In this document: one piece after another, positions 7,905-40,978 of the stretch
How positions within the stretch are numbered: position 1 is the first letter of the stretch
Layout of the letters: every line of letters begins with the position of its first letter
NCBI GenBank assembly: GCA_018304425.1
Contig: JAGVWE010000004.1
Coordinates: forward strand, 187,189 to 251,188
DNA: 64,000 bases
Source of the DNA: Candidatus Iainarchaeum sp.
GTDB lineage: Archaea > Iainarchaeota > Iainarchaeia > Iainarchaeales > UBA10219
Direction: 5' to 3'
Made by a program: the position numbers and the translations under genes
Notes under the pieces: generated by a model
Seen by the model: the letters and a program-made list of their open reading frames with translations, nothing else
Databases searched by the model: none
What the model was told of the DNA's origin: nothing

Positions 7905-8077
7905 TTTAAATTCTCGTCGGTTGTAAGTTAACTGTATGCACGCGCCAAGAAGGGATTTACTTTGGCACCCGTTCCACTGATTTAACCAGCGTGCGCACTG
8001 GCAAGGCCAGTTTTTCCCCCGGCTTTTTCAAAAAGGCTGCTAACTTTAGAAGGAATCTACTTTGGCTCCGGCCTTGA
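7905..8077 (+). promoter_or_regulatory. trp promoter/leader: TATA box, leaderless uORF1 (7936-7980, MHAPRRDLLWHPFH), two CTT-TGG putative +1 shift sites, hairpin/T-tract module
   Basis: TTTAAATT at 7905-7912; AGA AGG GAT TTA CTT TGG at 7948-7965; AGA AGG AAT CTA CTT TGG at 8048-8065. Confidence 0.8.
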
Positions 8078-9119
8078 ATCGCCTTTAAAGTCAGCCCTCA
8101 GCCAAGCCATTGACGGAAAGCTCTCCCCCACCGCCCTCGGAGAAGGCCTCCGCCAAATCCTCTCCGGCCAGGCCACGGACGCGCAAACCGCTTGCCTGCT
8201 CACCTGCCTCCGCCTGCAAGGCCTCGAAGCCCCCCAGCTGGTGGCAGCGGTCTTGGCCCTCCAGGAATTCATGCACGCCATCCACCCCAACGGCGACCAG
8301 CCCCTCTTGGACATCGTGGGCACGGGCGGCGACCAAGCCGGCACCTTCAACGTCTCCACGGCCTCGATGTTCGCCGCCGCAGGCGCGGGTTGCCGGGTCG
8401 CGAAACACGGCAACCGGGGTTTCACTTCCAAGACGGGCGCAGCCGACGTCCTCGAAAAACTCGGCGTCAACATCGGGCTCTCGCCAGCCGCCAGCGCGCG
8501 GTTATTGGAAGAAACCGGAGCCTGTTTCCTGTTTGCGCCCACTTTCCACCCCGCCCTGGCTTATGTAGCAGGCGTGCGGCGGGAGCTGGGCTTCCGCACG
8601 CTCTTCAACCTCCTGGGGCCCCTTGCCAACCCAGCCAACGCTTCCACGCGGCTCGTTGGCGCCAATTCCCCGGAGAACGCGCGCGTGCTCGCGAAAGCCC
8701 TGCAACGCCTGGGCCTCGCACACTGCCTCGTCGTCCACGGCTCCCAGGGCACGGCCTCCCGCGCTCCCGGCCTCGACGAGCTCTCCACGCTCGGCAAAAA
8801 CCTCTGCATCGAAGTCAAGGGCAAGGCCTCCAAGGAATTCTTCTTGCGGCCCGCGGAGTTCGGCTTCAAGCCCGCTGCACTCGCCGACCTGCAAGTCCAC
8901 TCCGTCGACGAAAGCGCGGCCGCCGTTCTGTCCGTCCTCCGCGGCGAAGCCGGCGCCAAGCGCGACGTCGTCCTCTTCAACGCCGGCGCGGCCATCCACG
9001 TCAACGGCCTCGCGGGTTCCATCGCCGAAGGCATGGCCCTTGCCCGCGGCTCCATTGACTCCGGCCAGGCCCTCGAAAAACTCGAACAACTGAAGGTGAA
9101 ATCGAATGCACTTGCTTGA
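8061..9119 (+). CDS. trpD: Anthranilate phosphoribosyltransferase; N-terminal domain lacks a canonical start codon
   Basis: DIVGTGGD..GTFNVST, AKHGNR; the N-domain ILSGQATDAQTACLLTCLRLQG lies upstream of the first in-frame GTG (8241). Confidence 0.93.
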   Translation, partial: FGSGLESPLKSALSQAIDGKLSPTALGEGLRQILSGQATDAQTACLLTCLRLQGLEAPQLVAAVLALQEFMHAIHPNGDQPLLDIVGTGGDQAGTFNVSTASMFAAAGAGCRVAKHGNRGFTSKTGAADVLEKLGVNIGLSPAASARLLEETGACFLFAPTFHPALAYVAGVRRELGFRTLFNLLGPLANPANASTRLVGANSPENARVLAKALQRLGLAHCLVVHGSQGTASRAPGLDELSTLGKNLCIEVKGKASKEFFLRPAEFGFKPAALADLQVHSVDESAAAVLSVLRGEAGAKRDVVLFNAGAAIHVNGLAGSIAEGMALARGSIDSGQALEKLEQLKVKSNALA

Positions 9120-9891
9120 CGAAATCCTCGCCACCAAGGAACTCGAAGTCAAGGCCATGAAGAAGGCGGCCTTCCGCGAGCTCCCGCTCCCACGGGGAAC
9201 CTTCCGCTTGCAGGAAGCCCTCGCCCGCCGCGGGAGGCTGGGCCTGGTCGCGGAGTTCAAGCGTCGCAGCCCGGCCGCAGGGGGCCCGACCACCGAAGCA
9301 CCCGATTTACCGTCAGCCATGCAAGCCTATGCCCAGTGCGCGGACGCGGTTTCCGTGCTCGTCGACCAGCCGTTTTTCGGCGCGCAACCGGATGACCTCG
9401 AGCAAGCCGTGCAACGCACGCCCCTGCCCGTGCTCGCAAAAGACTTCGTCCTCGCCAAGCCCCAACTGGATGCCTTCCACTTCCGGGGAGCGAGCGCCAC
9501 CCTGCTCATCGGGAGCATCCTCGGCAAACGCCATTTACAGGGCTTATACGCCTATTCCGTGGAACTCGGCCTGGATGCCCTGGTCGAAGTCCACTCCGCC
9601 GAAGAACTCGGCGTGGCCCTGGACCTGAACGCCCAACTCATCGGCGTCAACAACCGCGACCTGCGCTCGTTCAAGGTGGACCTGGCCACCACCCGGCGCG
9701 TGCTTGACTCGGCTTCCCCCAACGACTTGCGCGGTAAAATCATCGTCTCCGAGTCCGGCTATTCCTCGCTCGATGACCTCCACCGCGCCTACGCGGACGA
9801 GCGCGTGAACGCGGTCCTGGTCGGCACCTCGCTGATGGAGAACCCCAAGCTCTGCTTTGCGTTCCGCAGGCACTTCGGAGGAAAAACATGA
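9106..9891 (+). CDS. trpC: Indole-3-glycerol phosphate synthase
   Basis: [33 protein letters not shown]. Confidence 0.95.
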
Positions 9892-11069
9892 AAGCGAAAG
9901 GATACTTCGGCGAGTTCGGCGGTTCGTTTGTCGCGGAAACCCTCCTGCAGCCCCTCAGGGAACTTGGGCAGGCCTTCGAGTCGGCAAAGCGCTCGAAGCC
10001 CTTCCAGCGCGAACTCGATTCCCTGCTCCGCGACTATGCAGGCAGACCCACCGCGTTGACCTACTGCTCAACCCTCTCGCGCCGGCTCGGCTTCAAGGTC
10101 TACCTCAAACGCGAAGACCTGCTGCACACGGGGGCACACAAGCTCAACAACGCGTTGGGCCAGGCGCTCCTCGCGCGGACCATGAAAAAAAAGCGGCTCA
10201 TCGCCGAAACCGGGGCCGGCCAACACGGAGTGGCGACGGCAGTCGCCGCCGCGCGGCTCGGCTTGAAGGCAGAGGTCTACATGGGCACGGTCGACATGGA
10301 GCGCCAAAAACCGAACGTGCAACGCATGCGCCTCTGCGGCGCGGAAGTGAGGCCCGTGCCCTCCGGCTCGAAAACCCTCAAAGACGCCATTAACGAGGCT
10401 TTACGCGATTGGTCTGCCTCGTTCGAGGACACCCATTACCTGCTTGGCTCGGTGCTGGGCCCGCACCCCTTCCCCTCGATGGTCGCACATTTCCAGTCCG
10501 TCATCGGGCGCGAAGCCCGTAGGCAATTGCTCAAAACCGAGGGCAGGCTGCCCGACCAGGTCATTGCCTGCGTGGGCGGAGGCAGCAACTCCATCGGGGT
10601 CTTCCAGGCGTTCCTCGGCGAGCCATCGGTGAAGTTGACGGGAGTGGAGGCCGGCGGCCACGGAATCCGGTCCGGCCTGCACGCGGCCCGGTTTGCGGGA
10701 ACGCCCGATGCAGGGGTTGGAGTCGTGCACGGCACGCGCACCTTCGTCTTGCAGGACGCCTTTGGCCAGATCAAGAACACGCACTCGGTTTCCGCGGGCC
10801 TCGACTACCCCGCGGTGGGGCCCATGCATGCGCGGCTCCGCGCCGATGGCCGCGTGGAATACGTCTCGGCCACGGACCCGGAAGCCCTGAAGGCGTTCAC
10901 GTTGTTGTCGGAAGCCGAGGGAATCATTCCCGCCCTTGAAAGCGCGCACGCCCTCGCCCACCTCTCCAGGCTCAAGGGCAAGCTGAAACGGGACGCGATT
11001 GTTTTGGTCAACCTCTCGGGGCGCGGCGACAAGGACCTGGACACGGCCTGCAAGGAGTTGAACCTATGA
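9888..11069 (+). CDS. trpB: Tryptophan synthase beta chain
   Basis: [40 protein letters not shown]. Confidence 0.98.
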
Positions 11070-11878
11070 CCCCGGCTTCCATCGGGCAAACCCTTGCACG
11101 CCTCCGCGCGGAAAAAAAGCGTGCCTTCCTGCCCTTCCTGGTAGCAGGGCATCCCTCGTACGAGGAGTCCATGCGGTTGGCGCTGGCGGTCGCCGACCAC
11201 GCCGATGTCCTGGAACTCGGCCTGCCCTTTTCCGACCCCATCGCGGACGGTAAAACCATCCAAAAAGCCAGTTCCCTGGCCATAAAGCGGGGGATGGACA
11301 CGGAAACCTATTTCGGTTTCGTCTCCGAATTCACCCGGAAAACCAGGGGCCAGGTTCCCGTCCTCTGCATGACCTACTACAACCTCGTCCACCGGCTCGG
11401 CGTGCACGCCTTCACCGGGCGCGCGGCGGCTTCGGGCGTGAGCGGCTTGATAGTGGTGGACCTGCCCTTGGAGGAGTCGACCGCGCTGCAACGCGCGTGC
11501 GCGTTGAACGGCCTCGACCTGGTGCTGCTGGTCTCGCCCTCGACTCCCCCCGCGCGCGCCAGGAAAATAGCGGAAGCCTCGCGGGGCTTTGTCTACCTGG
11601 TTTCCTCGGTGGGAGTCACGGGCGCCAAGAAAAAGGTTTCCAGGCAAGCCCTTCGACTCATCCGCCGCGTGAAAAAAACCTGCAAGGGAAAACCCCTGTG
11701 CGTGGGCTTCGGCGTGAGCAACGCCGGGCAAGCGGCAACGCTTGCGCGCGCTGGCGCGGACGGCGTCATCGTGGGCTCGGCCCTGATTGACAAGGTAGGG
11801 GAGAAAAACTTTTCCGCGTCGCTGGCGCGCGTGCGCGCCCTCGCCGCATCCATCTCGGGAGGCTTGAAACATGTTTGA
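11066..11878 (+). CDS. trpA: Tryptophan synthase alpha chain
   Basis: [39 protein letters not shown]. Confidence 0.97.
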
Positions 11879-13472
11879 GGATTCGCTGGCGGTCCTGCGG
11901 CAGGCCAAGCCCGGTTCCCTGGTGCCCTTCGTGCACACCGTGGACCGCGTGCTGGACGTGCCCGACTATTTTTCGAAGCTCTCCGACTTTGGGAGAAAAC
12001 CCGGCAGCGTCTTGTTCGAGTCCGCGGAAGTGGTTTCAGGGTACGGCGAGCACAGCCTCGGGTTCGCCGAGCCCATCCTCCGGGCTTCCTTCGCCGACCC
12101 CGAACTGCGGATAACCGCCTTAAGCCCCCAAGGCGAGCGGTTCCTGGCCTTCGTGGGCGAGAAACCCTTCTCGTTCGTCGAAGGACTGGAGTTCTCAGCC
12201 AAGCAAGTAAAAGGCATCATTCCCCGCAAGGCGTTCAAGGGTTCGGAGGACGAAAAGTTCGCCGAGAAAACCCCCTTGGACGCGCTCCGCGTCCTGGCCT
12301 TCACCTTCAAGCCCACACTCCAGCCCTTCAAGTGCTCGGGCGGCCTGTTCGGGCTGTTCTCCCACGACTTCATCGACCGCTTCGAGGAACTGCCGCCCCT
12401 GGCGGAAAGGCCGGAACCCGACTACGAGTTCTACTTCGCGGATTCCCTGTTCTTCGTCGAACACCAGAAGAACAAAACCCACTTCATCGCCAACGCGTTG
12501 GTTTCGGACGATGACTCCGATGAGCAGGAAGCCTATTGCCGTGCCCGCCTCGACGCCTTGCTCGACAAGTTCAGCGACGCGCGTCCCCTAACGCCGCGGT
12601 TCGCGCCCAAACAGGCAGGCCCAGGCAACGAATCCATTTCGGAGAAAAGCTTTTTCGCAGGCGTCAAGGAAATCAACGAAAACATCCTGGCCGGCAACGT
12701 CTTCCAAGCCGTCTTGAGCGCGGAAACAAGCCTCGACTTCAACGCCGTCCCCCTCGACGCCTACAAGGCGCTGCGCGCAACCAATCCCTCGCCGTACATG
12801 TTCTTTTTCGGCCTCGAGCGCGGCCAACTCCTGGCGGCCTCGCCGGAGATGGGGTACCGCGTGGACGGGAACGGCAATGGCCAGCGGTTCCTGGAAGTGC
12901 GGCCCATCGCCGGCACGCGGCCGCGCGGCCAAGACCCGGAAGAGGACGCCCGCCTCGAAGCCGAGCTCCTGACGGACTCCAAGGAACTCGCCGAGCACGC
13001 CATGCTCGTGGACCTGGCGCGCAACGACGTGGCCCGGGCTTCGGTTCCCGGCACGCGGCAGGTCTCGAAGCCGTTCACGGTCGAAAAGTACTCCCACGTC
13101 CAGCACCTCGTGTCCACCGTCCGCGGCCAGCTGCGACCGGAACTGGATGCCCTCCACTGTTACCCCGTGTGCATGAACCCGGGAACCCTGACAGGGGCCC
13201 CAAAACCAGAGGCCATGAAGCTCCTGCGCAGGCTGGAGAAAAAGGGCAGGGGCTTCTATGGGGGCCTGGCCTGTTACCTCACCCCAGCGGGCGTGCTGGA
13301 CTCGGCCATCGTCATCCGCGCCATCCGCCTCCTGGACGGCAAGGCGCGGTTGCAGGCAGGCGCCGGAATTGTTTTGGACTCGCGGCCCGGAGACGAGTTC
13401 GCGGAAGTCCAGGCAAAACTGGCGGCCTGCCGGGAAGCAGTCAAGAAATCGGGGGGCGTGCTGCTTGACTGA
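11871..13472 (+). CDS. trpE: Anthranilate synthase component I
   Basis: LFESA, NPSPYMF, PIAGTRPRG, KELAEHAMLVDLARND, GTLTGAPK. Confidence 0.96.
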   Translation: MFEDSLAVLRQAKPGSLVPFVHTVDRVLDVPDYFSKLSDFGRKPGSVLFESAEVVSGYGEHSLGFAEPILRASFADPELRITALSPQGERFLAFVGEKPFSFVEGLEFSAKQVKGIIPRKAFKGSEDEKFAEKTPLDALRVLAFTFKPTLQPFKCSGGLFGLFSHDFIDRFEELPPLAERPEPDYEFYFADSLFFVEHQKNKTHFIANALVSDDDSDEQEAYCRARLDALLDKFSDARPLTPRFAPKQAGPGNESISEKSFFAGVKEINENILAGNVFQAVLSAETSLDFNAVPLDAYKALRATNPSPYMFFFGLERGQLLAASPEMGYRVDGNGNGQRFLEVRPIAGTRPRGQDPEEDARLEAELLTDSKELAEHAMLVDLARNDVARASVPGTRQVSKPFTVEKYSHVQHLVSTVRGQLRPELDALHCYPVCMNPGTLTGAPKPEAMKLLRRLEKKGRGFYGGLACYLTPAGVLDSAIVIRAIRLLDGKARLQAGAGIVLDSRPGDEFAEVQAKLAACREAVKKSGGVLLD

Positions 13473-14085
13473 AACAGGCAAGGGCTTGAAGGCCTTGTTG
13501 ATTGACAACTTCGACTCGTTTTCCTACAACCTGGTGGACGAGTTCCGGAAGCGCGGCGTCGAGTTGGTCGTGTACCGGAACACGGTTTCCATCGCCGAAC
13601 TCCTGGAACTCGAAAAGCGGTTCCCATTCTCGCTCGTCATCCTCTCCCCTGGCCCGGCAAGTCCAAGGGAGGCCAACAACCTGATTCCCATCCTCCAGCG
13701 GTTCGCCGGCTCCAAGGTCTTGTTCGGGGTCTGCCTGGGCCACCAAGCCATTGCCGAGGCCTTTGGGGGAACGGTTTCCAGGGTCGCGCCCGTGCACGGC
13801 AAGCCCAGCCCGGTCGAGGTCAAGGCCTCCAAGCTGTTCGAGGGCCTGCCCCCGGTTTTGCGCGTGGCCCGCTACCACTCGCTGGCCGCCACCAAGCTGC
13901 CGGCCTGCCTCCACGAGACCGCGCGCACTCCGGATGGGGTCAACATGGCGTTGGAGCACGCCACGCTGCCGGTCTACGGCGTGCAGTTCCACCCGGAAAG
14001 CATTTTGACTCCGTTGGGTGGCCGCATCATCGACCGGGTCCTGGCCATCGCAGCAGAAAGGAGGGTTCTGCCTGCGCCTTTATAA
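13465..14085 (+). CDS. trpG: Anthranilate synthase component II (glutamine amidotransferase)
   Basis: IDNFDSFSYNL, LSPGP, GVCLGHQ, QFHPES; TTG start overlapping the trpE end. Confidence 0.93.
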   Translation: MTETGKGLKALLIDNFDSFSYNLVDEFRKRGVELVVYRNTVSIAELLELEKRFPFSLVILSPGPASPREANNLIPILQRFAGSKVLFGVCLGHQAIAEAFGGTVSRVAPVHGKPSPVEVKASKLFEGLPPVLRVARYHSLAATKLPACLHETARTPDGVNMALEHATLPVYGVQFHPESILTPLGGRIIDRVLAIAAERRVLPAPL

Positions 14086-14139
14086 ATCGGCAAACCAGGG
14101 GAAACGCTTAAATAGTTCCTGTACTGGAGGTGATATAGT

Positions 14140-14235
14140 ATGGAGCAATCGTTTGTCTGCCTGAACGCTGTTGCAGTTCCTTCTTTAGTCGGCAGACTGT
14201 TTGCTTCCTTGGTTGGATTCTATTATTTTTGGTAA
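14140..14235 (+). CDS. Aromatic-operon leader peptide, 31 aa, ending FYYFW
   Basis: TTAAATA box ~14108, RBS GGAGGTGA 14126-14133; MEQSFVCLNAVAVPSLVGRLFASLVGFYYFW*. Confidence 0.8.
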   Translation: MEQSFVCLNAVAVPSLVGRLFASLVGFYYFW

Positions 14236-14237
14236 CG

Positions 14238-14330
14238 GGCTCTCCCTAAGCCTCGCCTAGGCTGCTTTCTCGGAGAGCCTTTCCTCAATCCCAGCCTCGG
14301 CTACCCTCTTCTTGGAAGCGGATTTTTTTT
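14238..14330 (+). terminator. Putative attenuator: GGCTCTCC/GGAGAGCC hairpin and T8 tract before pheA
   Basis: Stem 14238-14245/14272-14279; TTTTTTTT at 14323-14330. Confidence 0.5.
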
Positions 14331-14341
14331 GGTGATAAGAC

Positions 14342-15400
14342 ATGCAATTGGAAGTTGAACGCAGGAAAATCGACGCAATCGACGAAAAAATCGCCGCGCT
14401 CGTTTCAGAGCGCCTCCAGGCAGCCAAGCGAATCGGCGTCCTCAAAGGCGGGAACGCCGTCCTCGTGCCCGGACGCGAGCACGCCATCCTGGACGCGCTT
14501 GCTTCTAGCCATCCCACCCTTCCCCGCAAGGCCTTCGAAGGCGTCTTCCACGAGCTCTTCGCCGCCTCCCGCGCCGCCCAGAAGCCCTTGCAGGTCGCGG
14601 TGCTGGGGCCGGCAACCAGTTACTCGCACCAGGCCGCGGCCAAGCGCTTCGGCTCCCTCCCGGAATTCGCGTTCCAGTCCTCGATTCCCGAGGTCTTCCT
14701 GGCCGTCGAAAAGGGCCTGGCCGACTACGGCGTTGTTCCCATCGAGAATTCCTCGGACGGCGCGGTCAACGCGACCTTCAACATGTTCCTGAAGTCCCAT
14801 GCAGGCATCGTGGCCGAGATAAACCTGGACATCGACCATTGCCTGGCCGGCAAGGTGCCGCTCTCCGCGGTCAAGAAGGTGTTCTCGCACCCCCAGGCCC
14901 TGGCCCAGTGCGCGCACTGGCTGGCCAGCCGGTTGCCGCACGCCGAACTCCTGGAAGCGGCCTCGACTTCCGATGCCGCGGAGAAGGCCCTGGTCTACCA
15001 CAGCAGCGCGGCGGTTTGCTCGGAGTTCGCGGCCCGGCACGCGGGCCTCGACGTCCTGGCTTCTTCCATCGCCGACGAAGCCCTGAACCGCACCCGGTTT
15101 TTAGTCATCGGCAATATTGAGGCCCGGCCCTTGCCCGGTGGCAGGGACAAGACCAGCCTCATCTTCAGTGTCCCGCACAAGCCCGGCGCGCTCGTCGAAG
15201 CCTTGAAGGTCTTCCAGGCGCATGGCCTCAACATCACCAAGATTTGGAGCCGGCCCACCTTGATCCAGAAGGACGCCTACGAGTTCTTCGTGGACTTCCA
15301 GGGGTTCGTCGGCGACAAAAAAGTGGAGCAGGCACTCGACGAGCTCCGCGTACCCTGTGGTTTCGTCAAGGTGCTTGGCTCGTTCCCGGAGGAGGACTGA
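14342..15400 (+). CDS. pheA: Chorismate mutase/prephenate dehydratase (P-protein)
   Basis: R..IDAIDEKI..L..ER; VPIENS..GAV, SHPQALAQC, NRTRF, ACT domain. Confidence 0.95.
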   Translation: MQLEVERRKIDAIDEKIAALVSERLQAAKRIGVLKGGNAVLVPGREHAILDALASSHPTLPRKAFEGVFHELFAASRAAQKPLQVAVLGPATSYSHQAAAKRFGSLPEFAFQSSIPEVFLAVEKGLADYGVVPIENSSDGAVNATFNMFLKSHAGIVAEINLDIDHCLAGKVPLSAVKKVFSHPQALAQCAHWLASRLPHAELLEAASTSDAAEKALVYHSSAAVCSEFAARHAGLDVLASSIADEALNRTRFLVIGNIEARPLPGGRDKTSLIFSVPHKPGALVEALKVFQAHGLNITKIWSRPTLIQKDAYEFFVDFQGFVGDKKVEQALDELRVPCGFVKVLGSFPEED

Positions 15401-15401
15401 C

Positions 15402-16415: not shown

Positions 16416-16424
16416 GCGGAACCC

Positions 16425-25507: not shown

Positions 25508-25629
25508 AGCCTCCGGCGAGATTTGAACTCGCGACCTGCTGATGGCTTGCGCAACGCACTACCACCCCTTGCGGGGAAGTAGTTACCGCGTTACAAGTCA
25601 GCTGCTCTACCAGGCTGAGCCACGGAGGC
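25508..25629 (-). tRNA. tRNA-Thr(TGT) with ~48-nt intron at 37/38
   Basis: GCCTCCG acceptor, GCTGA-CT-TGT-A[intron]A-TCAGC, GTTCAAATC. Confidence 0.92.
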
Positions 25630-30923: not shown

Positions 30924-30927
30924 ATGG

Positions 30928-31713: not shown

Positions 31714-31722
31714 CCACGTTAA

Positions 31723-31794: not shown

Positions 31795-31856
31795 CAATAA
31801 TTCAAACTAATTGCCTCCGCAAAGGGTTTTAAAGCTTGGCTCGCCGCTTCCCGGCT

Positions 31857-32342
31857 TCAGCAGCCTAAGAGGTTTTTTTCGACGTAGATGTCCGTCGTGC
31901 CCCCATGGGCCTGGCTGAACACGCGTTTCACGACCTGGAAGCCTTGCGCGCGGTAGAAGGCAAGCGTTTCCGGTTCGCCGCAGAGGATGAACGCGCGGAC
32001 CTTGGCGGCGTGCCGTTGCCGGAACTCGTGCAAGGCTTTTTCCAGCAACTCGGCGCCGAAGCCCGCCCGCTTTTTTTCGGGCAAGACGAGGAACTGCTCG
32101 ATGGTGCCATGCAATGCGCCCGTCTTGCAGTAAATGAAGCCGGTTACTTTCCGGTGTTCCCTGGCCACGAAGCAAAACCGTTTCTTGCCCGCGAAGTGCT
32201 TGACGTAGTCCAGGGTGATGTGGGCAACCCTTTCCTCGAAGGCGTGCGTGGGCAGCTTGTGGTGGTAAGCCGAAATCCAGGAGACCAGGAAGGTTTCCAG
32301 CACGTCCACGGCATCGCTTTCCTCGAACCGCTTGATGAGCAT
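31857..32342 (-). CDS. GNAT N-acetyltransferase
   Basis: VLPEKKRAGFG.ELL, FY..QGF. Confidence 0.85.
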   Translation of the reverse strand: MLIKRFEESDAVDVLETFLVSWISAYHHKLPTHAFEERVAHITLDYVKHFAGKKRFCFVAREHRKVTGFIYCKTGALHGTIEQFLVLPEKKRAGFGAELLEKALHEFRQRHAAKVRAFILCGEPETLAFYRAQGFQVVKRVFSQAHGGTTDIYVEKNLLGC

Positions 32343-33595
32343 TATTTCACCAAATCGTTTACTTTATTCAAGTCGCTTACCTTTAACTTGGTTTCCTTGC
32401 CGCTCGCCAGGTCCTTCAAGGTGAGTTCGCCTGCCGCTAGGTCCTTCTCCCCGACAATCAAGACGAATGGCACGCCCAAGCGGCTCGCGTACGCCAGGTT
32501 CTTGCTGATGCCGCGCCCGCAGAGGTCCATGTCCGTGTTCACGCCCATCCCGCGCAGCCTCTGCGCGAGGTCAACGGCCGGCTTCAACGCGGTTTCCCCG
32601 ATGGGGGCCACGAACACCCGCGTCCGGTTCTGCGCCGGCAACCGGTCTTCGAGGACGTCCAGCAGCCGGTCGACGCCGAAGCTGATACCCGTGGCAGGAC
32701 TCTCTTGCCCTCCATACAGACCGACCAGCTTGTCGTACCTTCCGCCGCCGGCGATGCTCGCCACTCCCGGCACCATGACCTCGAAGACGTTGCCCGTGTA
32801 ATACTCCAGGCCCCGCGCGAGTGAAAGGTCCAACTGCACCTTGCCCTTGCAGCCCTGCGCTTCCAGCATCCCAATCAAGTCCAGCGCTTCCTTTAGGCCT
32901 TCGCTGTCCTTGCCGACCTGCTTCATCGCGCTCGCCGCGTCGTTCTGGCGCACGACTTCCAGGATGTCCGTGGGGATGCCCTTCTCTTTTAGTTCCTTCT
33001 CGACGCCCTTCCACTCGATTTTGTCGGCCTTGTCGAGGCTGCGGAAACAGTCCACGACCTGCTCGGGCTTCACCTTGCACTTCTTCGCGAGTTCCTCGAG
33101 CAGCTTCCGGTTGTTCACCTTCACCTTTGCGTCAAGGCCCAGGCGCTTCACGATTTCGAGCGCACAGGCAATCACTTCGAAGTCCGCGAGCGTGGAGTTT
33201 CCCCCCACCGTGTCCGCATCCGCCTGTGTGAACTCCCGGTAGCGGTTGGCGCCCGGCCGGTCATACCGCCACACCTGCCCGATTGCATAGCGCTTGAAGG
33301 GCTTCGACAGGTCCCGGTTGGTTGCCACTACGCGACCCATTGGCACCGTCAAGTCAAACCGCAATCCGATGTTGCGGTCGCCCTGGTCCTTGAACCAATA
33401 AATTTCCTTGGAAATCTCCTGGCCCCCCGCCCCCTTCTTGGCCAGCAACTCGAGTTCTTCGAGTGCGGGCGTCTGCAGGGGATAGAACCCGTACAACTCG
33501 AACACCTGCCGGCAGGTGTCCTCGATGAACTGCTTCTTCTTCATGCGTTCCGGGAGAAAGTCCCGCGTGCCGCGCACGTTTTGAAAGGTCGTCAT
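32342..33595 (-). CDS. hisS: Histidyl-tRNA synthetase
   Basis: RGTRDFLP, LRFDLTVP, RYREFTQ, LARGLEYYTG, GGGRYD. Confidence 0.97.
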   Translation of the reverse strand: MTTFQNVRGTRDFLPERMKKKQFIEDTCRQVFELYGFYPLQTPALEELELLAKKGAGGQEISKEIYWFKDQGDRNIGLRFDLTVPMGRVVATNRDLSKPFKRYAIGQVWRYDRPGANRYREFTQADADTVGGNSTLADFEVIACALEIVKRLGLDAKVKVNNRKLLEELAKKCKVKPEQVVDCFRSLDKADKIEWKGVEKELKEKGIPTDILEVVRQNDAASAMKQVGKDSEGLKEALDLIGMLEAQGCKGKVQLDLSLARGLEYYTGNVFEVMVPGVASIAGGGRYDKLVGLYGGQESPATGISFGVDRLLDVLEDRLPAQNRTRVFVAPIGETALKPAVDLAQRLRGMGVNTDMDLCGRGISKNLAYASRLGVPFVLIVGEKDLAAGELTLKDLASGKETKLKVSDLNKVNDLVK

Positions 33596-33635
33596 AACCC
33601 ATACCTCCTAAGTTCCTTGCAGTTTAATAGGTTTT

Positions 33636-33740
33636 GCCTTCGGGCTGTGTCCTGCGCAGCAGGACACGTTTCCCCGAAGACGCGGTCTTCGGGGCCTCGT
33701 CCCCAAGGGGACAAGGTCGCAGGCCTTTTGTCAAAAGGCC
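33636..33740. repeat. Cluster of five adjacent hairpins between hisG and hisS
   Basis: gcc/ggc, gtgtcctgc/gcaggacac, ccccgaagac/gtcttcgggg, cctcgtcccc/ggggacaagg, ggcctttt/aaaaggcc. Confidence 0.8.
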
Positions 33741-34625
33741 TCACGGCACCACCCGGTTGAACTCGAATTCCACCAAGTCCGTGGCCCCCGCCTTCTTGAT
33801 GAGCGGGATAAGGCCCGGCACCGCCTCCCGGTCCACGGCCACGTTCACGGCATAGCCTTCCTCGCCGTAGAGCTTGGCAATGGTGGGTTTTCGCAGGCAG
33901 GGCAGGATTTTCACCAGCTCATCCAGGCGTTCCGCGGACACGTTCATGACCAGCATGGACTTCTTCTTGCCCAACAGCACGCTCTGCAACAGCGTATTGA
34001 TTTCCGCGATTTTAGCGCGCTTGGCCTCGTCCGCCCAGGCTGCCTTGTTCGCGATGAGCCGCGTTGTTGACTCCATGACCGTGTCCAGGATGCAGAGGTT
34101 GTTGGCCTTCAACGAGCTCCCCGTCTCGGTCAACTCCACGATGGCGTCCACCAGCCGCGGGCACTTCGCCTCCGTGGCCCCCCACGAAAACTCGACCGCG
34201 GCGCGCACCCCATTGCGGGCCAGGTATTCCTTTGCCAGGTTCACGTACTCGGTGGCCACGCGCTTTCCCTCCACGTCCTTCACCGACTTGATGCCGGAAT
34301 CACAGGGCGCAGCCAAGACCACGCGCACCTTGCCGAACCCCTGCTTGGAGTACAGCAACTCGCTGACCTCCTCGACCCTCGCTCCGCTCTCCGCAATCCA
34401 GTCCTTGCCCGTGATGCCCGCATCCATGACCCCGTCCTCGACGAACCTGGCCATCTCCTGCGCGCGCACCATCATGACCTCGATGCCCGGGTCGCTGATG
34501 GCCGGAAAGTAGCTTCTTTCCGTGGCCTTGATGCGCAGGCCCGCCGCGTTGAACAACTCGACGGTCGCGTCCTGCAGGCTCCCCTTCGGGATGCCCAACT
34601 TCAATTTCTCCTTCGTTTCGTTCAT
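33741..34625 (-). CDS. hisG: ATP phosphoribosyltransferase, long form
   Basis: [31 protein letters not shown]-terminal regulatory domain. Confidence 0.95.
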
Positions 34626-35614
34626 TTTCTTTCCTCCACCTTGCCAAAAAAGCAACTCCGTTGATTGGTGTGACACGCGTTGCCGGTCTGCTCGACCCGA
34701 AACAACAACGCGTCCGCGTCACAGTCGAAGCGCACTTCCCGCACGCGCTGGAAGTTGCCGCTCGTCTCCCCCTTCGTCCACAGCGCCTTGCGGCTCCGGC
34801 TCCAGTAACAGGCCTTGCCCTCGCGCAGGGTCTTCTCCAGCGAAGCGCGGCTCACATAGGCCAGCATCAGGACCTCGCCGTTGCCCGCATCCTGCACCAC
34901 GGCCGGAATCAAGCCGCGGCCCTTGCCGAAGTCCAGGCGATTGAACGCCAGCGCGTCCTCAACGGAAATCCTTCCCTCGTACAACGCCATGCCCACCACC
35001 GCATCCACGCCCAGCCAGTCCAGGCGCGCCACCTCAGCCAGGGAGGACACCCCACCCGCATAGACCAGCCTGTTCCGGGTCAGCCTGGCCAGCCTTTCCA
35101 CGCGCCCGAAATCAAAGCCCGCCATCCGCCCCTCGACCTCCACAAAGGTGGCCATGAACTCCCCGCAATAGTCCTCCAACTCTGGCAGCAGTTCCTCCGG
35201 AGTCCGCGACGTCGCCTCCTTCCAGCCCTTCACGACGATGCGGCCGTCCTTCGAGTCCAGGGCCGCGACCACTTTCTCCCTTCCCACCACGCCAGCCAGC
35301 TCCGACAGGAAGCCTTTCTCGGCCTTCGACCCGACGATGACCTTCTTCGCCCCGGCCTCCACCAGCGCGACCGCTTTCTCCACCGAGTCGATGCCGCCTC
35401 CCACCCGCGCCCGCACCTTCCAGCACAACGCCTGCACGGTCTCCAGGTTAGAGCCCTCGCGCAACGCGGCATCCAAATCAATGACCTGGACTTCCCGGAA
35501 CCCCTTGAACCGCTCCGCTAAGCCATCCACGTCCGTGGACTCCCACTTCTTCTCGCGGCCGCCCACGAGCTGCACCGCCTTGCCATCCATCAAATCAATC
35601 GCCGGAATGATCAT
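34622..35614 (-). CDS. hisA: ProFAR isomerase / phosphoribosyl-AMP cyclohydrolase fusion (HisA-HisI)
   Basis: [18 protein letters not shown]; [31 protein letters not shown]...SCF. Confidence 0.93.
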
Positions 35615-36366
35615 GGTCGCACCTCAACCCTTTTTTCCTTCAAGAACGCTTTCACTTGCCCAATCGTCAACTCCCCAAAATGGAAGACGCTCGCTGCCAG
35701 CACGGCGTCCGCGCCTCCAACGGCAACCGCGTCGTAGAAGTCTTGGAGGCCGCCCGCGCCCCCCGAGGCGATGACGGGAATGCGCGCCCGCACCCCAATC
35801 GCCGCCAGCAACTCCACGTCAAACCCCTGCTTGGTGCCATCGCGGTCCATGGAGGTTACTAGCAGTTCCCCCGCGCCCAGTTCCTCGGCTTGCTTCGCCC
35901 ACTGCACCGCGTCAAGCCCGGTCGCCTGCGAGCCCGCGCGCGAATACATTTCCCACCCTGCTCCCACCCGTTTCGCGTCAATCGCCACGACCACGGCCTG
36001 GCTCCCAAACTCCCGCGCCAACTCGCCAATGAGTTCAGGCCGCTCCACCGCCGCTGAGTTGACCGTGACCCGGTCGGCCCCGGCCAAAAGCAGTTCCCTG
36101 GCCGCTTTAACCGACTTAATGCCGCCGCCCACGGTCAAGGGCACGAAGACGCGCCGGGCCGTCCGCCGAACCAATTCCACCACGGTCTTCCGTTCTTCGA
36201 CCGTGGCCCCGATATCCAGGAAAGCGATTTCGTCCGCGCCCTCCGCATAATATTTTTCCGCCAACTCCACGGGCAAGCCTGCCGGCTGAAGGCATCCGAA
36301 ACGGACTCCTTTCACGACCTTCCCGCCCTTCACGTCCAGGCAGGGGATGATTCTCTTCGCCAACAT
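35611..36366 (-). CDS. hisF: IGP synthase cyclase subunit
   Basis: [32 protein letters not shown]. Confidence 0.97.
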
Positions 36367-36370
36367 GTTC

Positions 36371-36970
36371 TCACGCTTCCACGAAATTCCTCAACACCTG
36401 CAGCCCCACGGGGCCGCTCTTCTCCGGGTGGAACTGTACGGCCCACACATTTTCGCATTCCACGGCCGAAACGAATGACTCGCCGTACTCGCTCCGCGCC
36501 GCCACGAGGTCGGGCGCGGTCCGCTTCACGGCGAACGAGTTCACGAAGTACGCGTAGGCGCCATCCTCGACGCCCTCGAAGAGCCGCGTCTTCCGCGTCA
36601 AGCGCAACCGGTTCCACCCGATTTGCGGCACCTTCCGCGCAACCGTGAACCGCTCCACCCTTCCCCCCAGCAACCCAAGGCCGCTCGCGTCCAGGCTTTC
36701 CTCGCTCCCCTCGAACAGCAATTGGAACCCCAGGCAGATGCCCAGGAAAGGCGTGCCCTCCCGCACCCGCTCCCTGAGCGCCGCCTCCAAGCCCGTGCGC
36801 CGAAGGGAGGCCAGGGCCGAGCCGAAGTTGCCCACACCGGGGAGCAGGATTTTGTCGGCCCCTGCCAGGTCTTTCGGCCCGGACGCGGTTATGTAGCTTG
36901 CACCCAGCCAGTCCAAGGCATTCCCCAGGCTGCCCAGGTTGCCCGCGCCATAGTCCACGATTCCAATCAC
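36371..36970 (-). CDS. hisH: IGP synthase glutamine amidotransferase subunit
   Basis: IVDYGAGNL.S, LPGVG, LGICLG, QFHPEKS; GTG start overlaps the hisB stop. Confidence 0.95.
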   Translation of the reverse strand: MIGIVDYGAGNLGSLGNALDWLGASYITASGPKDLAGADKILLPGVGNFGSALASLRRTGLEAALRERVREGTPFLGICLGFQLLFEGSEESLDASGLGLLGGRVERFTVARKVPQIGWNRLRLTRKTRLFEGVEDGAYAYFVNSFAVKRTAPDLVAARSEYGESFVSAVECENVWAVQFHPEKSGPVGLQVLRNFVEA

Positions 36971-37572
36971 GTTTTCACCTCCCGCAACCTTCCCTTCGTG
37001 CTCGGCACGCCCCGCATTCTCGCATCCGGCTCGACCGCCATCCGCAAAGCCTTTCCAAACGACTTGAACAGGGCTTCCGCGATGTGGTGCGAGTTCCTTC
37101 CCGCCAACAACCGCAGTTGCAGCGTGCAGCCTAGGTTGGTGGCCAGCGCTTCGAAGAAGTGCTCGACCATCTCCGCACTCAAGTCCCCGACCTTCTTCGC
37201 CGGGAACCCGGCCTCGAACGCGAGCTTTCCCCGCCCGCTCAAGTCCAGCGCGCACAAGGCCAGGCTCTCGTCCATGGGCAGGACGAAAAAGCCATAGCGG
37301 TTGATGCCATTTCGGTCGCCCAGCGCCTGACTCAAGGCCTGGCCCAAGGCGATGCCCGCGTCCTCGACCAAGTGGTGCTCGTCGAACCGGTCCACGCACT
37401 CGGCCTCCAGCTTCACGTCCACGAGGCTCTTCGCGGCCACCTGTTCCAGCATGTGGTCGAAGAAGTCAATCCCCGTTCGCACCGCGAATTTTCCGGTGCC
37501 GTCCAGGTCGACTTCCACGCGCACGCGCGTCTCCTTCGTCTTCCGCTCCACCCTTGCCTTCCTCATCTCCAT
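36967..37572 (-). CDS. hisB: Imidazoleglycerol-phosphate dehydratase
   Basis: R.TKET, FFDHML, DEHHLVED, PMDESL, NSHHIAEALFK. Confidence 0.96.
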   Translation of the reverse strand: MEMRKARVERKTKETRVRVEVDLDGTGKFAVRTGIDFFDHMLEQVAAKSLVDVKLEAECVDRFDEHHLVEDAGIALGQALSQALGDRNGINRYGFFVLPMDESLALCALDLSGRGKLAFEAGFPAKKVGDLSAEMVEHFFEALATNLGCTLQLRLLAGRNSHHIAEALFKSFGKALRMAVEPDARMRGVPSTKGRLREVKT

Positions 37573-39277
37573 CCCTCCAGCGCCTCATTCACATCCCCAA
37601 AAACCTTTCCCGCTCCGTTCTTTCGGAGCAGTTCCCTCAACTCCCTTCCCTTGTCTTGGGGCGGCAGCACCCCGACCGCGGTCAAGCCCGCCCGCCGGGC
37701 CGCCTGCTGGTCGTCTGGCGTGTCCCCGAAGTAGGCCCCAGCCGCCGCAGGACCTCCTTCAACCCCCACGGGCCTGGCTTGGCCTTTCCGGGAGGCACGT
37801 CCTCCATGCACACGACCTCCGCGAACAAGTCCCGCACCCCAAAGCGTTGCAGCGCAAACTCGGCTTCCGCTCTCGGTCTGCCCGTGAACACCGCCAGCCG
37901 ATACCTTTCAGCCAACCGCTTCAACCCTTCCTTGTCCGCCAGCAGTTTCTCGTTGGCAATCAAGCCGCCAAAGTTTTTGCCGAGGTAAAACCCCTGGAAC
38001 ACTCGCTTCACCGTCGCCAGCTCCGCTTTCTTTCCCTTCCGCTTGGCCAGCTCGCGGCTCAGCTCCCAGTCGCTGTTGTAGCCGCCCTCGTTCTTCAACG
38101 CCTGGATTTCGCCGGCGCTCGCCTTCTTCCCGGTCAACCGTTCCACTGTCAACCGGATGGCCTCGCGGTAGGATTTCCGCACGTCGACGAGCACTCCATC
38201 GATGTCGAAGACGAGCACGGGCTCGGCAAGTACGCCCTTCAGTTCGCGCACGAAGCGTTTCATCTGCTTCCGCGTGCCAATCGTCACCCGACAGCAGCCC
38301 GCCAACAACGGGTAACCGGAGCGGTCGCGCACCAGCACCCCGCGCTCGCGCAGCTTCCGCACCACGAACTTCACCTGCGACCCCAGCCGGAGGATGAAGG
38401 CGTTGGCTTTGCCGAACCGCGCTTCCACACCCAACCGTTTCAGGGCCTTCCGCAGCCAGGCCCGGCTCTTCCCCACTTCCCGGACATAGGCCCGCATGTA
38501 GGCCAGGTCCCCCAAAGCCGCCAGCCCAGCCCGCAAACCGGCTCCGCTGACCGGATACGGCCTTGCAGCGGCCGCCAGCCTTTCGATGACGGGCGCCTGT
38601 GCCAAGGCATAGCCCATGCGCAGCCCCGCCAAGCCGAAGGCCTTGGACAGCGTGCGCAGCACCAGGAGGTTGCCATATTTCCTGAGCATGGGGACCAGGG
38701 TCTCCCCGCCGAACTCGATGTAGGCCTCATCCACCAGCACCAACGCGTTCGGCGCGCGGCGCAGCAGCCGTTCAACCTGCTTGCGCGTGACCGTGGTTCC
38801 CGTCGGGTTGTTGGGCGAGCACACCACGATTGCGGCCGTCCGCGCGTTCACCGCCCCGAGCACGCGCTTGAGCGGGAAAGAAAACCCTGCGTCGTCGTCC
38901 AACAACACTTCCCGCACTTTCAATCCCGCCAGCTTCGCGTACAACTCGAACGGTGAGTACGTCGGAACCGGGAGCACGACTTCGCCGCGCGGCCTCCGGA
39001 TGGCGTCGAAAATCTTGTCGATGGCCTCGTCCGAGCCGTTGAACAGCAGGACGTTCTCCGGCCGCACCTTGCAGTAGGCCGCCACCTTCTCCGCCAGCCG
39101 CCGGCTCTCCGGATAAGCGGCCACCACTTCAGCCGTCAGGCCCCGCAACGCCTTCACCACCTTCGGGCTCGGCCCCACCGTGTTCTCACCGAAGTCCAGT
39201 CGCAGCTTGCCCAGCCTCCCGGCTATGGGCGGAACGTACTTTTCCGCTTCCATGACCTCTCCTCGCATTCCCATCAT
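37563..39277 (-). CDS. hisC: Histidinol-phosphate aminotransferase fused to a HAD phosphatase; frame break near 37738
   Basis: NGSDE, SPNNPTG, VDEAY, RTLSKAFGLAGLR; HAD motif FDIDGVLVDV; AYFGDTPDD continues in another frame to 37563. Confidence 0.88.
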
Positions 39278-40566
39278 TTCCGTTTCACCTCGAACCGTTT
39301 CTCCACCGACTTCCTGTGCGCGTCCAGCCCCTCTTCCCGGGCCAGGCACGCGACGGCCGGCCGCAAGGCCTCCAAACCCCTGCGCGACAGCCTTTCCACG
39401 TTCTGGAACCGCATGAACTCAAGCACGCTCAACCCGGACGAGAACCGGGCCGCGCGCCCGGTCGGCAAAACGTGGTTGGTGCCGCTCGCATAGTCTCCGG
39501 CCGCCTTGGGACTCCAAGGCCCCAGGAAAACCGTGCCCGCGTTGACGAGCCCATCCACAAACCGTTGGCCGAAGCCCCAGACCTCGGCGTGCTCGGCCGC
39601 GAAGTCGTTGGCGAACCGCAGGACCTGTGCCTCGTTTTTTGCGAGGACAATCAGCCCGTTTCGTTTCAGCGACTGCCGTGCAACTTGGCCGGTCGCCAGT
39701 TCCCCCAACTGCTGCTTTAACTCCTTTTCCACTTGCCGCGCCAGCTTCCGCGAAGTCGTGACCAGCACGCTGCGCGCGTTGGGCTCGTGCTCGGCGGAAG
39801 CCAAGAGGTCGGCGGCCATCCATTCCGGGTTCCCGCTTTTCGCCAGCACCAGCAGTTCGGTGGGCCCGGCCAGCAAGTCGATGCCGACCTCGCCGTAGAC
39901 GAGCCGCTTGGCCGCCGTGACATACGCGTTTCCCGGCCCGAAAACCTTGTCCACGCGTGGAATGCTTTCCGTGCCGTACGCCATCGCGGCAATGGCTTGC
40001 GCGCCCCCAACCTTGAAGATGCGGTCGGCTCCCGCCAGCAGGCAAGCAGCCACGATCAAGGGATTCGCTTTCCCGTCCTTCCGCGGCGGCGTGCACACGA
40101 TTTTCTCGCGCACGCCCGCCACCTGCGCGGGCACCAGGTTCATCAGCGCGGTCGATGGCAGCGGATATCGCCCGGCAGGGACATAGACCCCGACGCGCTC
40201 GATGGGCCGCACGGTCTGCCCCGCGTATATGCCGTTACCGAAGCCTTTTGCCCAGCTTTTAGGCAGGGCCGCCCGCTGGAAATCCGCGAGGTTCTTCGTC
40301 GCGCACTTCAACGCGCTCCGCTGTTCCTTTGTCAGGCCGCGCAGGGCCGCGCGTTTCTCGGCCGCGCCCACTTCCAGTTCGTTTGCCGATAGCGTGACCC
40401 GGTCGAACCGCCGCGTGAATTCGCGCAGGGCAGCGTCGCCGCGCCTGCGCACGGCCTCGAGTATTTCCCGTGCCGCTGGCTCCGCTGCGCGGTTCGCTTC
40501 CGCTTTCGGTTTCACCAACCGTTCATAGTCCGTTCGCGAAACCCCGGCCAACTCGACCCGGGTGAA
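39274..40566 (-). CDS. hisD: Histidinol dehydrogenase; probably initiated at ATG 40603 via a +1 shift, alternative TTG start 40551
   Basis: GVYVP.G, GGAQAIAAMAYGT, GPGN.YV, AGPTE, AEH, GDY..GTNHVLPT. Confidence 0.95.
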   Translation of the reverse strand, partial: FTRVELAGVSRTDYERLVKPKAEANRAAEPAAREILEAVRRRGDAALREFTRRFDRVTLSANELEVGAAEKRAALRGLTKEQRSALKCATKNLADFQRAALPKSWAKGFGNGIYAGQTVRPIERVGVYVPAGRYPLPSTALMNLVPAQVAGVREKIVCTPPRKDGKANPLIVAACLLAGADRIFKVGGAQAIAAMAYGTESIPRVDKVFGPGNAYVTAAKRLVYGEVGIDLLAGPTELLVLAKSGNPEWMAADLLASAEHEPNARSVLVTTSRKLARQVEKELKQQLGELATGQVARQSLKRNGLIVLAKNEAQVLRFANDFAAEHAEVWGFGQRFVDGLVNAGTVFLGPWSPKAAGDYASGTNHVLPTGRAARFSSGLSVLEFMRFQNVERLSRRGLEALRPAVACLAREEGLDAHRKSVEKRFEVKRK

Positions 40567-40978
40567 CTAAACCCCTTCTGTCAGTCTTGCGACTAGTCGT
40601 CATAACCCAACCCACCTCCAAGAGAAGTTGTTGGGCTACCCCCAATGATGGAGTAACCCGTGGTGAACTAACTCAACCCGTTCGGTTGAAGAAAAGAAAG
40701 GGCCGGTGCGGGGAATTGAACCCCGTTCAGAAGGTCCACAGCCTTCTATCCTAACCGATAGACCACACCAGCCATTACGCCTTTTTACAAAAGGTGTGCG
40801 AAAACGTCCCATGCGCGGCATGGGACTGCCCTCAGTATTGGCTTCGCTAAAAGAGGGACAAGCGCTGAGAATAGTTTCATAGCTAGCCAAGTCAAGTAGG
40901 GCGTTATCGCCGGCTATGAAGTAAATTCCTTCTCATAGGTTAATCGCTCACATATCTTCCGTCTGCGGAGTTTAAATA
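40523..40978 (-). promoter_or_regulatory. his leader: TATA box, three uORFs with His-codon putative +1 shift sites, RBS-sequestering hairpin, embedded tRNA-His
   Basis: TATTTAAA 40978-40971; uORF 40936-40904 MRRNLLHSRR; frame ending VHHGLLHHWG* at 40636; uORF 40603-40523 with AGA AGG GGT TTA GTT CAC. Confidence 0.78.
40701..40773 (-). tRNA. tRNA-His(GTG) with encoded G-1
   Basis: G-GCTGGTG...CACCGGC-C; GAAGG-CT-GTG-GA-CCTTC. Confidence 0.95.

Follow-up and report, generated by a model that had tools for sequence, protein, structure and literature searches.

A proposed +1 frameshift cassette with pathway-matched sensor codons at amino-acid and tRNA loci of Iainarchaeales

Shifts of the ribosome into the +1 frame at slow codons are known from several well-described genes. 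In the release factor 2 (RF2) gene prfB, a CUU_U shift site works together with a Shine-Dalgarno (SD) stimulator, and in Ty1 a CUU_AGG_C site shifts at a hungry codon whose tRNA is scarce, as set out in a 2016 review (PMC5009743). For hungry-codon shifting that gives rise to trans-frame proteins specific to starvation, the review says that “no examples are known”. E. coli pheL also shows frameshifting, which is regarded as incidental (PMC3082878, PMC5009743), and the available portion of a 2021 review of archaeal recoding (PMC8211752) names a single -1 case among cellular genes and none of the +1 type. Here, we analyze a stretch of 64,000 nucleotides (the window) from the genome of the archaeon Candidatus Iainarchaeum sp. 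(contig JAGVWE010000004.1 of assembly GCA_018304425.1, C3:187189-251188; order Iainarchaeales, DPANN). A preliminary description, made from the sequence alone, had pointed at a six-codon cassette shared by its trp and his operons, whose last codon (here called the sensor codon) encodes the end product of the operon, and had interpreted it as a +1 frameshift site that responds to low Trp- or His-tRNA. This interpretation is supported by the sequence comparisons reported below, with independent support coming from a +1 frame that stays open far beyond the +2 frame and from conserved enzyme N-termini that are encoded in +1 with no canonical start ahead of them.

The cassettes resemble prfB in combining a short zero-frame open reading frame (ORF) with a product in the +1 frame; in addition, a P-site CUU would re-pair on UUN, the A-site codon would through slow decoding report the level of a translation factor, and a purine-rich element that may be SD-like lies upstream (RF2 features from PMC5009743). 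Among leader-type cassettes, defined solely by an in-frame ATG at most 12 codons upstream (n = 44), every A site holds a sense codon and none the UGA of the RF2 type; the RF2-type arrangement of a short zero-frame ORF with a +1 product recurs, the domains of TrpD, ProB, HisE and the racemase all opening at the cassette in +1. In E. coli prfB, the gap between the SD-like element and CUU measures 3 nt, the same as in the cassettes. Whereas prfB senses a stop codon via a release factor, the cassettes would sense a Trp, His, Cys, Pro or Ile codon via aminoacyl-tRNA. They further differ from prfB in being archaeal, in occurring in series, in replacing CUU by GUU, in their weak predicted anti-SD pairing and in their outputs, which include tRNA genes, synthetases and whole biosynthetic operons.

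With yeast Ty1 and ABP140 the cassettes share a P-site CUU and would share a following codon whose tRNA is scarce and a slip onto the overlapping +1 codon (PMC5009743), but Ty1 relies on a constitutively rare tRNA and yields a fixed product ratio, whereas the cassette codon matches the controlled pathway, implying feedback sensing. Antizyme likewise uses a +1 shift as both sensor and effector of a metabolic feedback loop, according to PMC5009743, although it senses polyamines at a stop codon in eukaryotes and the cassettes are proposed to respond to charged tRNA at a sense codon. As in trpL, hisL and pheL, the translation speed of a leader ORF at pathway-matched codons would control a biosynthetic operon; however, trpL and hisL carry tandem codons, whereas each zero-frame ORF here has one and cognate runs occur only in +1 ORFs, terminator/antiterminator hairpins were not found at the trp leader, and output would depend on a frame change. 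T-boxes, too, provide codon-specific control of synthetase and amino-acid genes by tRNA charging, but in bacteria and through a structured, untranslated leader that binds tRNA, whereas the cassette codon is read in frame and gave no Rfam T-box match. In the literature, judged mostly from titles and abstracts, we found no description of this system. The system thus appears to be sensor frameshifting of a previously undescribed form, which beyond its sequence anatomy we put forward as a proposal.

Cassettes at the trp, his and cys loci

The source genome (G000; 1,477,149 bases, 7 contigs, 58% G+C) and the window were scanned for the pattern AGAAGGNNTYTASTT. The window contains four matches, compared with 0.00 expected from 100 dinucleotide-preserving shuffles, and the whole genome only six, with none for the reversed control pattern. 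Sequence inspection and the scan place the four window cassettes exactly where they had been described: at 7948 (+; AGAAGGGATTTACTT, then TGG) and 8048 (+; AGAAGGAATCTACTT, then TGG) for trp, and at 40933 (-; AGAAGGAATTTACTT, then CAT) and 40579 (-; AGAAGGGGTTTAGTT, then CAC) for his. The other two matches of the genome scan lie outside the window, at C4:57850 (..CTT TGC) and C4:57878 (..GTT TGT). The motif is hence not spread genome-wide irrespective of context, a possibility that the preliminary description had raised against itself; its six copies fall at three loci, namely the trp operon, the his operon and a position beside cysS. Sensor codons are TGG/TGG at trp, CAT/CAC at his and TGC/TGT at cys, each naming the amino acid of the adjoining genes. 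A zero-frame stop follows within 4-13 codons of all four window cassettes, as had been noted. A looser scan of G000 (up to two mismatches, fixed 3' core) gave no additional convincing cassette.

At the trp locus, the zero-frame leader ORF (MHAPRRDLLWHPFH and stop; 7936-7980, +) begins with an ATG 4 codons before cassette 1 (AGAAGGGAT-TTA-CTT plus sensor TGG; 7948-7965, +) and ends at a TGA in the context C-TGA-TTT. A candidate TATA-like box (CTTTAAAT; 7904-7911, +), read by eye, lies ~25 nt before this ATG, and TTTAAA-type boxes similarly precede leaders in relatives. From cassette 1, the zero frame stops after 5 codons, the +2 frame after 6 and the +1 frame after 37. This +1 ORF (GTRSTDLTSVRTGKASFSPGFFKKAANFRRNLLWLRP and stop; 7964-8077, +) spans T-runs and includes cassette 2 (AGAAGGAAT-CTA-CTT plus sensor TGG; 8048-8065, +), which, at a spacing of 100 nt (1 mod 3), is in the +1 frame of cassette 1. 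The T-runs comprise a small hairpin (CUGGCAAGGCCAG) with TTTTT at 8011-8015 and a second TTTTT at 8024-8028 (together 7996-8028, +), candidate archaeal oligo-T terminators located 63 and 76 nt past the cassette start, beyond the zero-frame stop and within the +1 ORF. From cassette 2, the zero frame stops after 4 codons (TGA, 8075-8077), and the +1 frame is open for 351 codons and encodes TrpD (anthranilate phosphoribosyltransferase; 8064-9119, +). Overlapping or abutting ORFs for trpC, trpB, trpA, trpE and trpG follow (9106-14085, +).

The trpD frame has a stop at 7983 and from there on no ATG, GTG or TTG until a GTG at 8241 (codon 60). The +1 ORF scores 346 bits with the TIGR01245 trpD profile, and its N-terminal helical bundle (Glycos_trans_3N) is aligned from residue 18, corresponding to profile position 10. 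In all 29 TrpD proteins of relatives, the start lies 80-103 residues before GTGGD; it is exactly 80 in 21, most of which begin MIKEAI.. behind GGAGG or GGTGG. In the source genome, the first canonical start is only 26 residues before GTGGD. The conserved N-terminus therefore reaches here to about five codons after cassette 2, and the trans-frame junction peptide of TrpD is predicted to be NLLGSGLESPLK. At leader 1, the predicted junction would read ..DLLGTR.., and at ProB of L096 ..DLLHAR.. No cassette was found within the 1.5 kb flanks of trpD in these 29 relatives, because trpD is operon-internal there; in family f24, trpD is preceded on its own strand by a Trp leader and tRNA-Trp at a distance of ~2.5 kb. 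The trp leader at 7934-7983 is also matched, with 3 differences, by a 163-nt contig from another organism in a similar sample (run X5, record 4); the upstream sequence of this contig, including a TATA-like box, is different, and the contig probably represents the Trp leader of a relative.

At the his locus, a candidate TATA-like box identified by eye (TATTTAAA; 40971-40978, -) lies upstream of leader ORF 1 (zero frame, MRRNLLHSRR and stop; 40904-40936, -), which contains cassette 1 (AGAAGGAAT-TTA-CTT plus sensor CAT; 40916-40933, -). The zero frame stops after 4 codons, the +2 frame after 0 and the +1 frame after 93. The preliminary description had the +1 frame of each cassette lead onward to the next cassette or to the first enzyme. 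This proved right for trp, where cassette 1 leads to cassette 2 and on to trpD, but wrong for his cassette 1, whose 93-codon +1 ORF (40636-40917, -; ending ..ELVHHGLLHHWG and stop) passes through the tRNA-His(GTG) gene between the two his leaders (40700-40772, -) and stops at 40638, 35 nt before the ATG of leader ORF 2, which sits in the zero frame of cassette 1. The strings TTA GTT CAC CAC and TTA CTC CAT CAT at 40671-40645, previously taken for partial cassette copies, are present; together they read TTA GTT CAC CAC GGG TTA CTC CAT CAT (40645-40671, -), and their four His codons belong to the +1 frame of his cassette 1, near its end, in parallel to the W-x-W that ends the Trp +1 ORFs of relatives. 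Leader ORF 2 has its own ATG (40603; MTTSRKTDRRGLVHPGRVGRGFANGL and stop; 40523-40603, -) and carries cassette 2 (AGAAGGGGT-TTA-GTT plus sensor CAC; 40562-40579, -), with a +1-frame TAG directly before the shift site. Here, the zero frame stops after 13 codons, and the +1 frame is open for 429 and encodes HisD (39274-40563, -; Histidinol_dh, 498 bits, from residue 22).

Downstream of hisD lie a hisC-HAD fusion, hisB, hisH, hisA, hisF-hisI and hisG, followed by hisS after a 150-nt gap (32345-39349, -). The HAD-type hydrolase domain fused to hisC (37685-39349, -) is possibly a histidinol-phosphate phosphatase. Genes for tRNA-Leu(CAG), tRNA-Arg(CCG) and tRNA-Arg(GCG) are clustered at 41731-42225 (-), immediately upstream of the his leader. 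Rfam also identifies a 122-nt tRNA at 25508-25629 (-) that default aragorn misses and that presumably contains an intron.

The cys cassettes are flanked by a divergent cysS (Pfam tRNA-synt_1e, 427 bits) and a 108-codon ORF. The pair (C4:57814-58222; locus L024:1465-1873) reads from MQESRNASLSFPRRDLLCLSH and stop, via the +1 frame, to ..IRRDLVCLLD and stop and, via a second +1 frame, into the 108-codon ORF, which opens with a shortened cassette-like string (GGGAAGGCTACTTCAAG). This ORF has a weak MarR-like winged-helix signal (MarR_2, E = 0.0018, below the cut-off), with no Pfam match at 0.001 and no NCBIfam match. In relatives (loci L100 and L173), the Cys leader is instead found upstream of tRNA-Cys and cysS.

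Codons, reading frames and start codons across the Iainarchaeales

The preliminary description had named relatives as the place to look for the motif, and the exact cassette was indeed found in 61 of 196 Iainarchaeales genomes (83 matches, all retrieved). Its claim that the last codon tracks the pathway holds across these genomes: the 44 leader-type copies carry only Trp (20), His (13), Pro (9), Cys (1) or Ile (1) at the sensor position. A tRNA gene lies within 900 nt downstream of 28 of them, and the first such tRNA is cognate to the sensor codon in 27 of the 28 according to aragorn and in all 28 after inspection of L062, an intron-containing tRNA-Trp(CCA) whose intron had been misplaced by the program. 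The sole ATA leader is located before tRNA-Ile(TAT). Genes after the leader tRNAs are hisS, proS, cysS or proB. The remaining 39 matches show 14 different residues or stops at the sensor position. Eight of them (L001, L008 twice, L015, L024, L026, L030 and L077) are true cassettes by context, being second cassettes or ones for which the script chose a distant ATG, and the rest look like chance matches inside genes. Matches followed by TGA at L028 and L079 were considered as possible aRF1-like autoregulation and rejected as chance matches, as they lie in long ORFs reading EEGIYF.

As a control, bacterial and archaeal contigs were scanned for ATG-N(0-6)-AGAAGGGATTTACTT (at least 120 loci; hand counts over 80 named rows). 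The next residue is W, H, P or C in 17 of 17 archaeal in-frame-ATG matches among the matches listed, and in 2 of 19 bacterial ones among the matches listed, the latter showing no frame pattern. Across the phylum (215 genomes), a tighter pattern occurs in 49 genomes, with 15/23 in f24, 11/38 in f11, 5/9 in f2, 5/23 in f21 and 0/22 in f3; variant cassettes exist, and this exact-pattern count is therefore an undercount. Another DPANN phylum (301 genomes) gave 20 matches against ~35 for the reversed control (hand count), thus no enrichment. Intron-containing tRNA-Trp and tRNA-Cys genes of several relatives are mis-assigned by aragorn, and at L009 a duplicated 5' part of tRNA-Trp lies ~100 nt before the real intron-containing gene, with the +1 ORF stopping inside the duplicate.

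The three reading frames behave very differently downstream of the sensor codon. Median distances to the first stop in the 44 leaders are 5 codons in the zero frame, 60.5 in the +1 frame and 8 in the +2 frame. The +1 frame is longer than the zero frame in 44/44 leaders and longer than the +2 frame in 42/44, and at least 24 open codons are found in the +1 frame of 43 leaders, compared with six for the +2 frame. The UUAGUU variants show ..AUU UAG in frame +1 immediately before the shift site; the +1 ORF can therefore begin no earlier than the final two bases of GUU, and initiation at AUU is excluded. The closest zero-frame stop lies two codons past the sensor codon (L010, L031). With the +1-frame UAG before the site and the zero-frame stop two codons after it, a frame change is therefore confined to GUU/CUU, the sensor codon and one more codon.

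Serial arrangements follow the same frame. Tandem cassettes without an ATG of their own lie in the +1 frame of the first cassette in 5/5 cases (the trp and cys loci of G000, L008, L001 and L026), and where the second cassette has its own ATG, the first +1 ORF ends on that ATG (ATGA in L007, TAATG in L081) or 35 nt before it (his here). More generally, a +1 stop that overlaps the following ORF's ATG is present in L007, L010 (hisS), L058 and L063 and, by eye, in L081 and L008; such overlaps number 0 for the zero frame and 1 for the +2 frame. Several His and Pro leader +1 ORFs stay open through one or more tRNA genes (window 40636-40917 (-), L006, L010, L045-L047, L050, L052, L011, L012 and L021), an openness that may partly be due to chance, as tRNA sequences are conserved.

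Enzymes without a canonical start are not limited to TrpD. In ProB (L081, L096, L201), the AA_kinase domain begins at residue 4-10 of the +1 ORF and the first ATG, GTG or TTG is codon 20-42; in HisE (L026, L027), PRA-PH begins at residue 9-10, with the first start codon at 34-66; and in an Asp/Glu racemase behind a Trp-codon cassette (L070, L078), the domain begins at residue 12, with the first start codon at 26-34. HisG (L001), TrpB (L073) and TrpB2 with TrpE (L031, L162) also lie directly in the +1 ORF after the cassette, though these four may use an internal TTG or GTG start. The position of the racemase-family gene behind a Trp cassette suggests a Trp-related role. At L030, a Trp cassette is followed by a +1-frame ParB/sulfiredoxin-like ORF before trpB2, and the His cassette of L044 leads into a 412-codon +1 ORF without an assigned function.

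A motif-free survey anchored on 30 tRNA-Trp loci of relatives revealed ATG-led leaders upstream of 12 of these genes by script and of four more by eye. They include the variants AGAAGGGAT-TCA-CTT-TGG, AGAAGGGAT-CGA-CTT-TGG, AAAGGCGAT-TCA-CTT-TGG and AAAAGTGAG-TGC-CTT-TGG; elsewhere, the first cassettes of L001 and L026 read ..AAGTGAT-TTA-CTT-CAY, and that of L007 reads AGGGGGGAT-TTA-CTT-CCT. All variants keep a GGNGAU-like element, exactly 3 nt, CUU or GUU, and the sensor codon, whereas the spacer codon varies (UUA, UCA, CGA, UGC) with the same geometry. The G000 cassettes, for their part, keep AGA and TTA, each of which makes up only 2.6 per 1000 codons. The varying spacer and the retention of rare codons therefore indicate a constraint on nucleotides and spacing, not on the peptide. 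The P-site codon is CUU in most cassettes and GUU in 11 true ones, and it is followed by U in Trp and Cys cassettes, by C in His and Pro cassettes and by A in the Ile cassette, a fourth base that is more relaxed than in CUU_U. Open lengths in the variant leaders are 3-8 codons for the zero frame, 30-65 for the +1 frame and 4-9 for the +2 frame, and W-x-W ends the +1 ORF in 10 of the 12 Trp leaders found by script, a feature with no easy explanation if the +1 frame were left untranslated. In L234, L242, L243, L250, L254-L256 and L260, both TGG codons of the W-x-W lie in the 5' arm of a small hairpin with the stop in its loop; a second, pausing-type sensor and an RNA processing signal are two candidate readings of this structure.

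Proposed mechanism and competing explanations

Anatomy, codon-pathway match, frame statistics and missing start codons, all observed directly, are what an explanation has to cover. We consider it probable that enzymes are gated directly by programmed +1 frameshifting at a hungry codon, often at two successive sites, and tRNA and synthetase genes via a long +1 ORF. A leader ORF starting 1-12 codons upstream would deliver the ribosome to the GGNGAU-like element, the 3-nt spacer (usually UUA), CUU or GUU and the sensor codon. With plentiful cognate aminoacyl-tRNA, the sensor codon would be read and the ribosome would terminate a few codons on; with scarce aminoacyl-tRNA, the A site would stay empty, and the peptidyl-tRNA would slip from CUU or GUU to UUN and enter the +1 frame. 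Four outputs can be envisaged. The +1 frame may be the enzyme itself (trpD here; proB, hisE, hisG, trpB and the racemase in relatives); it may hold a second cassette, so that two serial shifts would be needed and the response would be steeper (the trp and cys loci here); its stop may overlap the next ATG (ATGA or TAATG); or it may form a long ORF that crosses oligo-T tracts toward the cognate tRNA gene and synthetase. Transcription and translation are coupled in archaea, which provides a general basis for a shielding step, and in the tRNA-type leaders the translating ribosome probably protects the transcript from early termination. Four parts of this scheme are our inference: that the ribosome slips, that slipping depends on tRNA charging, that the upstream element plays a part and that termination is linked to it.

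The upstream AGAAGG/GGNGAU-like element may, tentatively, act as an SD-like stimulator. It resembles the SD complement of the 16S tail ..GGATCACCTCCT, and G000 makes use of SD motifs (GGAGG 66 vs 18, GGTGA 47 vs 9).

The competing explanation that fares best, though we still hold it improbable, is leader-peptide attenuation by pausing only, where a stall at the sensor codon alters RNA folding, oligo-T termination or access to the next start. The leaders are short ORFs that open with ATG, contain a codon matched to the pathway and follow closely on TATA-like boxes, and hisD, the 108-codon ORF and some trpB2 genes have starts of their own nearby, as attenuation would allow. Runs of five or more T are located after the zero-frame stop, inside the +1 ORF and before the tRNA in 22 of 28 tRNA-type leaders, by a hand count in which AT-richness was uncontrolled. 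Each zero-frame ORF, however, contains a single sensor codon and no run, and pausing leaves unexplained the open +1 frame in 43/44 leaders, the TrpD, ProB, HisE and racemase genes that begin in +1 at the cassette without canonical starts, and the 5/5 ATG-less second cassettes in the +1 frame. Moreover, the trp leader (7936-8100) folds no better than shuffled sequences (z = 0.10), with one small hairpin plus U5, and even with E values as high as 10 allowed, neither leader matched any Rfam family of Trp or His leaders. A scan for bacterial-type promoters and terminators, which is not designed for archaea, found 0. A pausing stage may nevertheless coexist with the frameshift, in view of the W-x-W or HH..HH at the ends of +1 ORFs.

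Non-canonical initiation near the cassette, or constitutive recoding without sensing, for instance by a quadruplet-reading tRNA, appears quite unlikely. Many cassettes do have a +1-frame ATT, ATC or ATA within them or directly behind them, and L255 has a +1-frame GTG inside its cassette (by eye). In the UUAGUU variants, by contrast, UAG follows AUU at once and no start remains before the conserved N-terminus; this applies to HisE (L026, L027), the racemase (L070, L078), TrpB (L073) and the second his and cys cassettes here. A constitutive shift, in turn, needs no pathway-matched A-site codon, whereas all 44 leaders stay within five amino acids and 28/28 tRNAs are cognate.

We give even less weight to a T-box-like or other RNA that binds uncharged tRNA through a displayed codon independently of translation, which we regard as very unlikely. 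Such an element would suit the match of the codon to the downstream tRNA and synthetase, as in T-box leaders, and the nucleotide-level conservation across GC-rich and AT-rich genomes, including the rare AGA and TTA of G000. Rfam, however, returns only tRNAs in the window at the gathering threshold and nothing relevant in both leaders at E up to 10, the trp leader shows no significant structure, and in every case an ATG close by shares the frame of the sensor codon; nor would an untranslated element require the three frames to behave so differently.

Assembly or sequencing indels, or decaying pseudogenes, can be practically dismissed: the genomes are metagenome-assembled and trpD looks frameshifted to a gene caller, but assembled contigs of 4 runs from 4 studies match 7850-8450 with 0 differences and 0 indels, which at contig level answers a check that the preliminary description had called for, and the architecture recurs in 61/196 genomes and several enzyme families, always +1 and always with the same cassette.

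A number of observations weigh against the hungry-codon frameshift. Regarding the sites themselves, GUU re-pairs poorly on UUN at the first position, and the predicted duplex of the upstream element with GAUCACCUCCU reaches -3.8 to -5.9 kcal/mol in most variants, compared with -16.3 for a perfect SD, with ~10% of random 12-mers from cassette loci pairing equally well with the 16S tail. Regarding starts, hisD has an in-frame TTG at 40551, and a shift is therefore not strictly needed there, unlike in trpD; the 108-codon ORF has an in-frame TTG just after the cassette, and trpB2 in L067 has its own ATG, and therefore not every output needs a shift. The +1 ORF joining both trp cassettes contains an in-frame GTG (~7991, by eye), through which cassette 2 could be reached without the first shift, and non-canonical initiation at ATC, ATA or CTG may occur near some fused N-termini at some loci. 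The model also offers no account of tRNA processing where the tRNA gene lies within a translated +1 ORF. Finally, many of the leaders are orthologous, and their counts overstate independence; three of the four matching runs may stem from the source sample itself, and rare variants are masked in contigs; and no RNA runs containing window 7850-8450 were found.

What sensor frameshifting would mean for Iainarchaeales

The evidence leans, if modestly, toward the broader proposal that Iainarchaeales use programmed +1 frameshifting at a fixed cassette as a general sensor of amino-acid and tRNA charging. If true, this would be the first natural hungry-codon frameshifting that makes starvation-specific products and the first +1 programmed frameshift in cellular archaeal genes. 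It would constitute a regulon in which one device, often present as two consecutive copies that make the response steep, controls enzymes through obligatory trans-frame fusion and also gates cognate tRNA and synthetase genes, the shifted ribosome following RNA polymerase across oligo-T terminators. The system would represent an archaeal answer to the T-box and attenuator systems of bacteria. As an 18-nt device re-aimed at any amino acid by a one-codon change, it would also offer a compact, portable sensor for synthetic biology. In these genomes, gene callers would systematically misread trpD, proB, hisE, hisG and other genes as truncated or broken, which would bear on claims of missing biosynthetic pathways in DPANN archaea.

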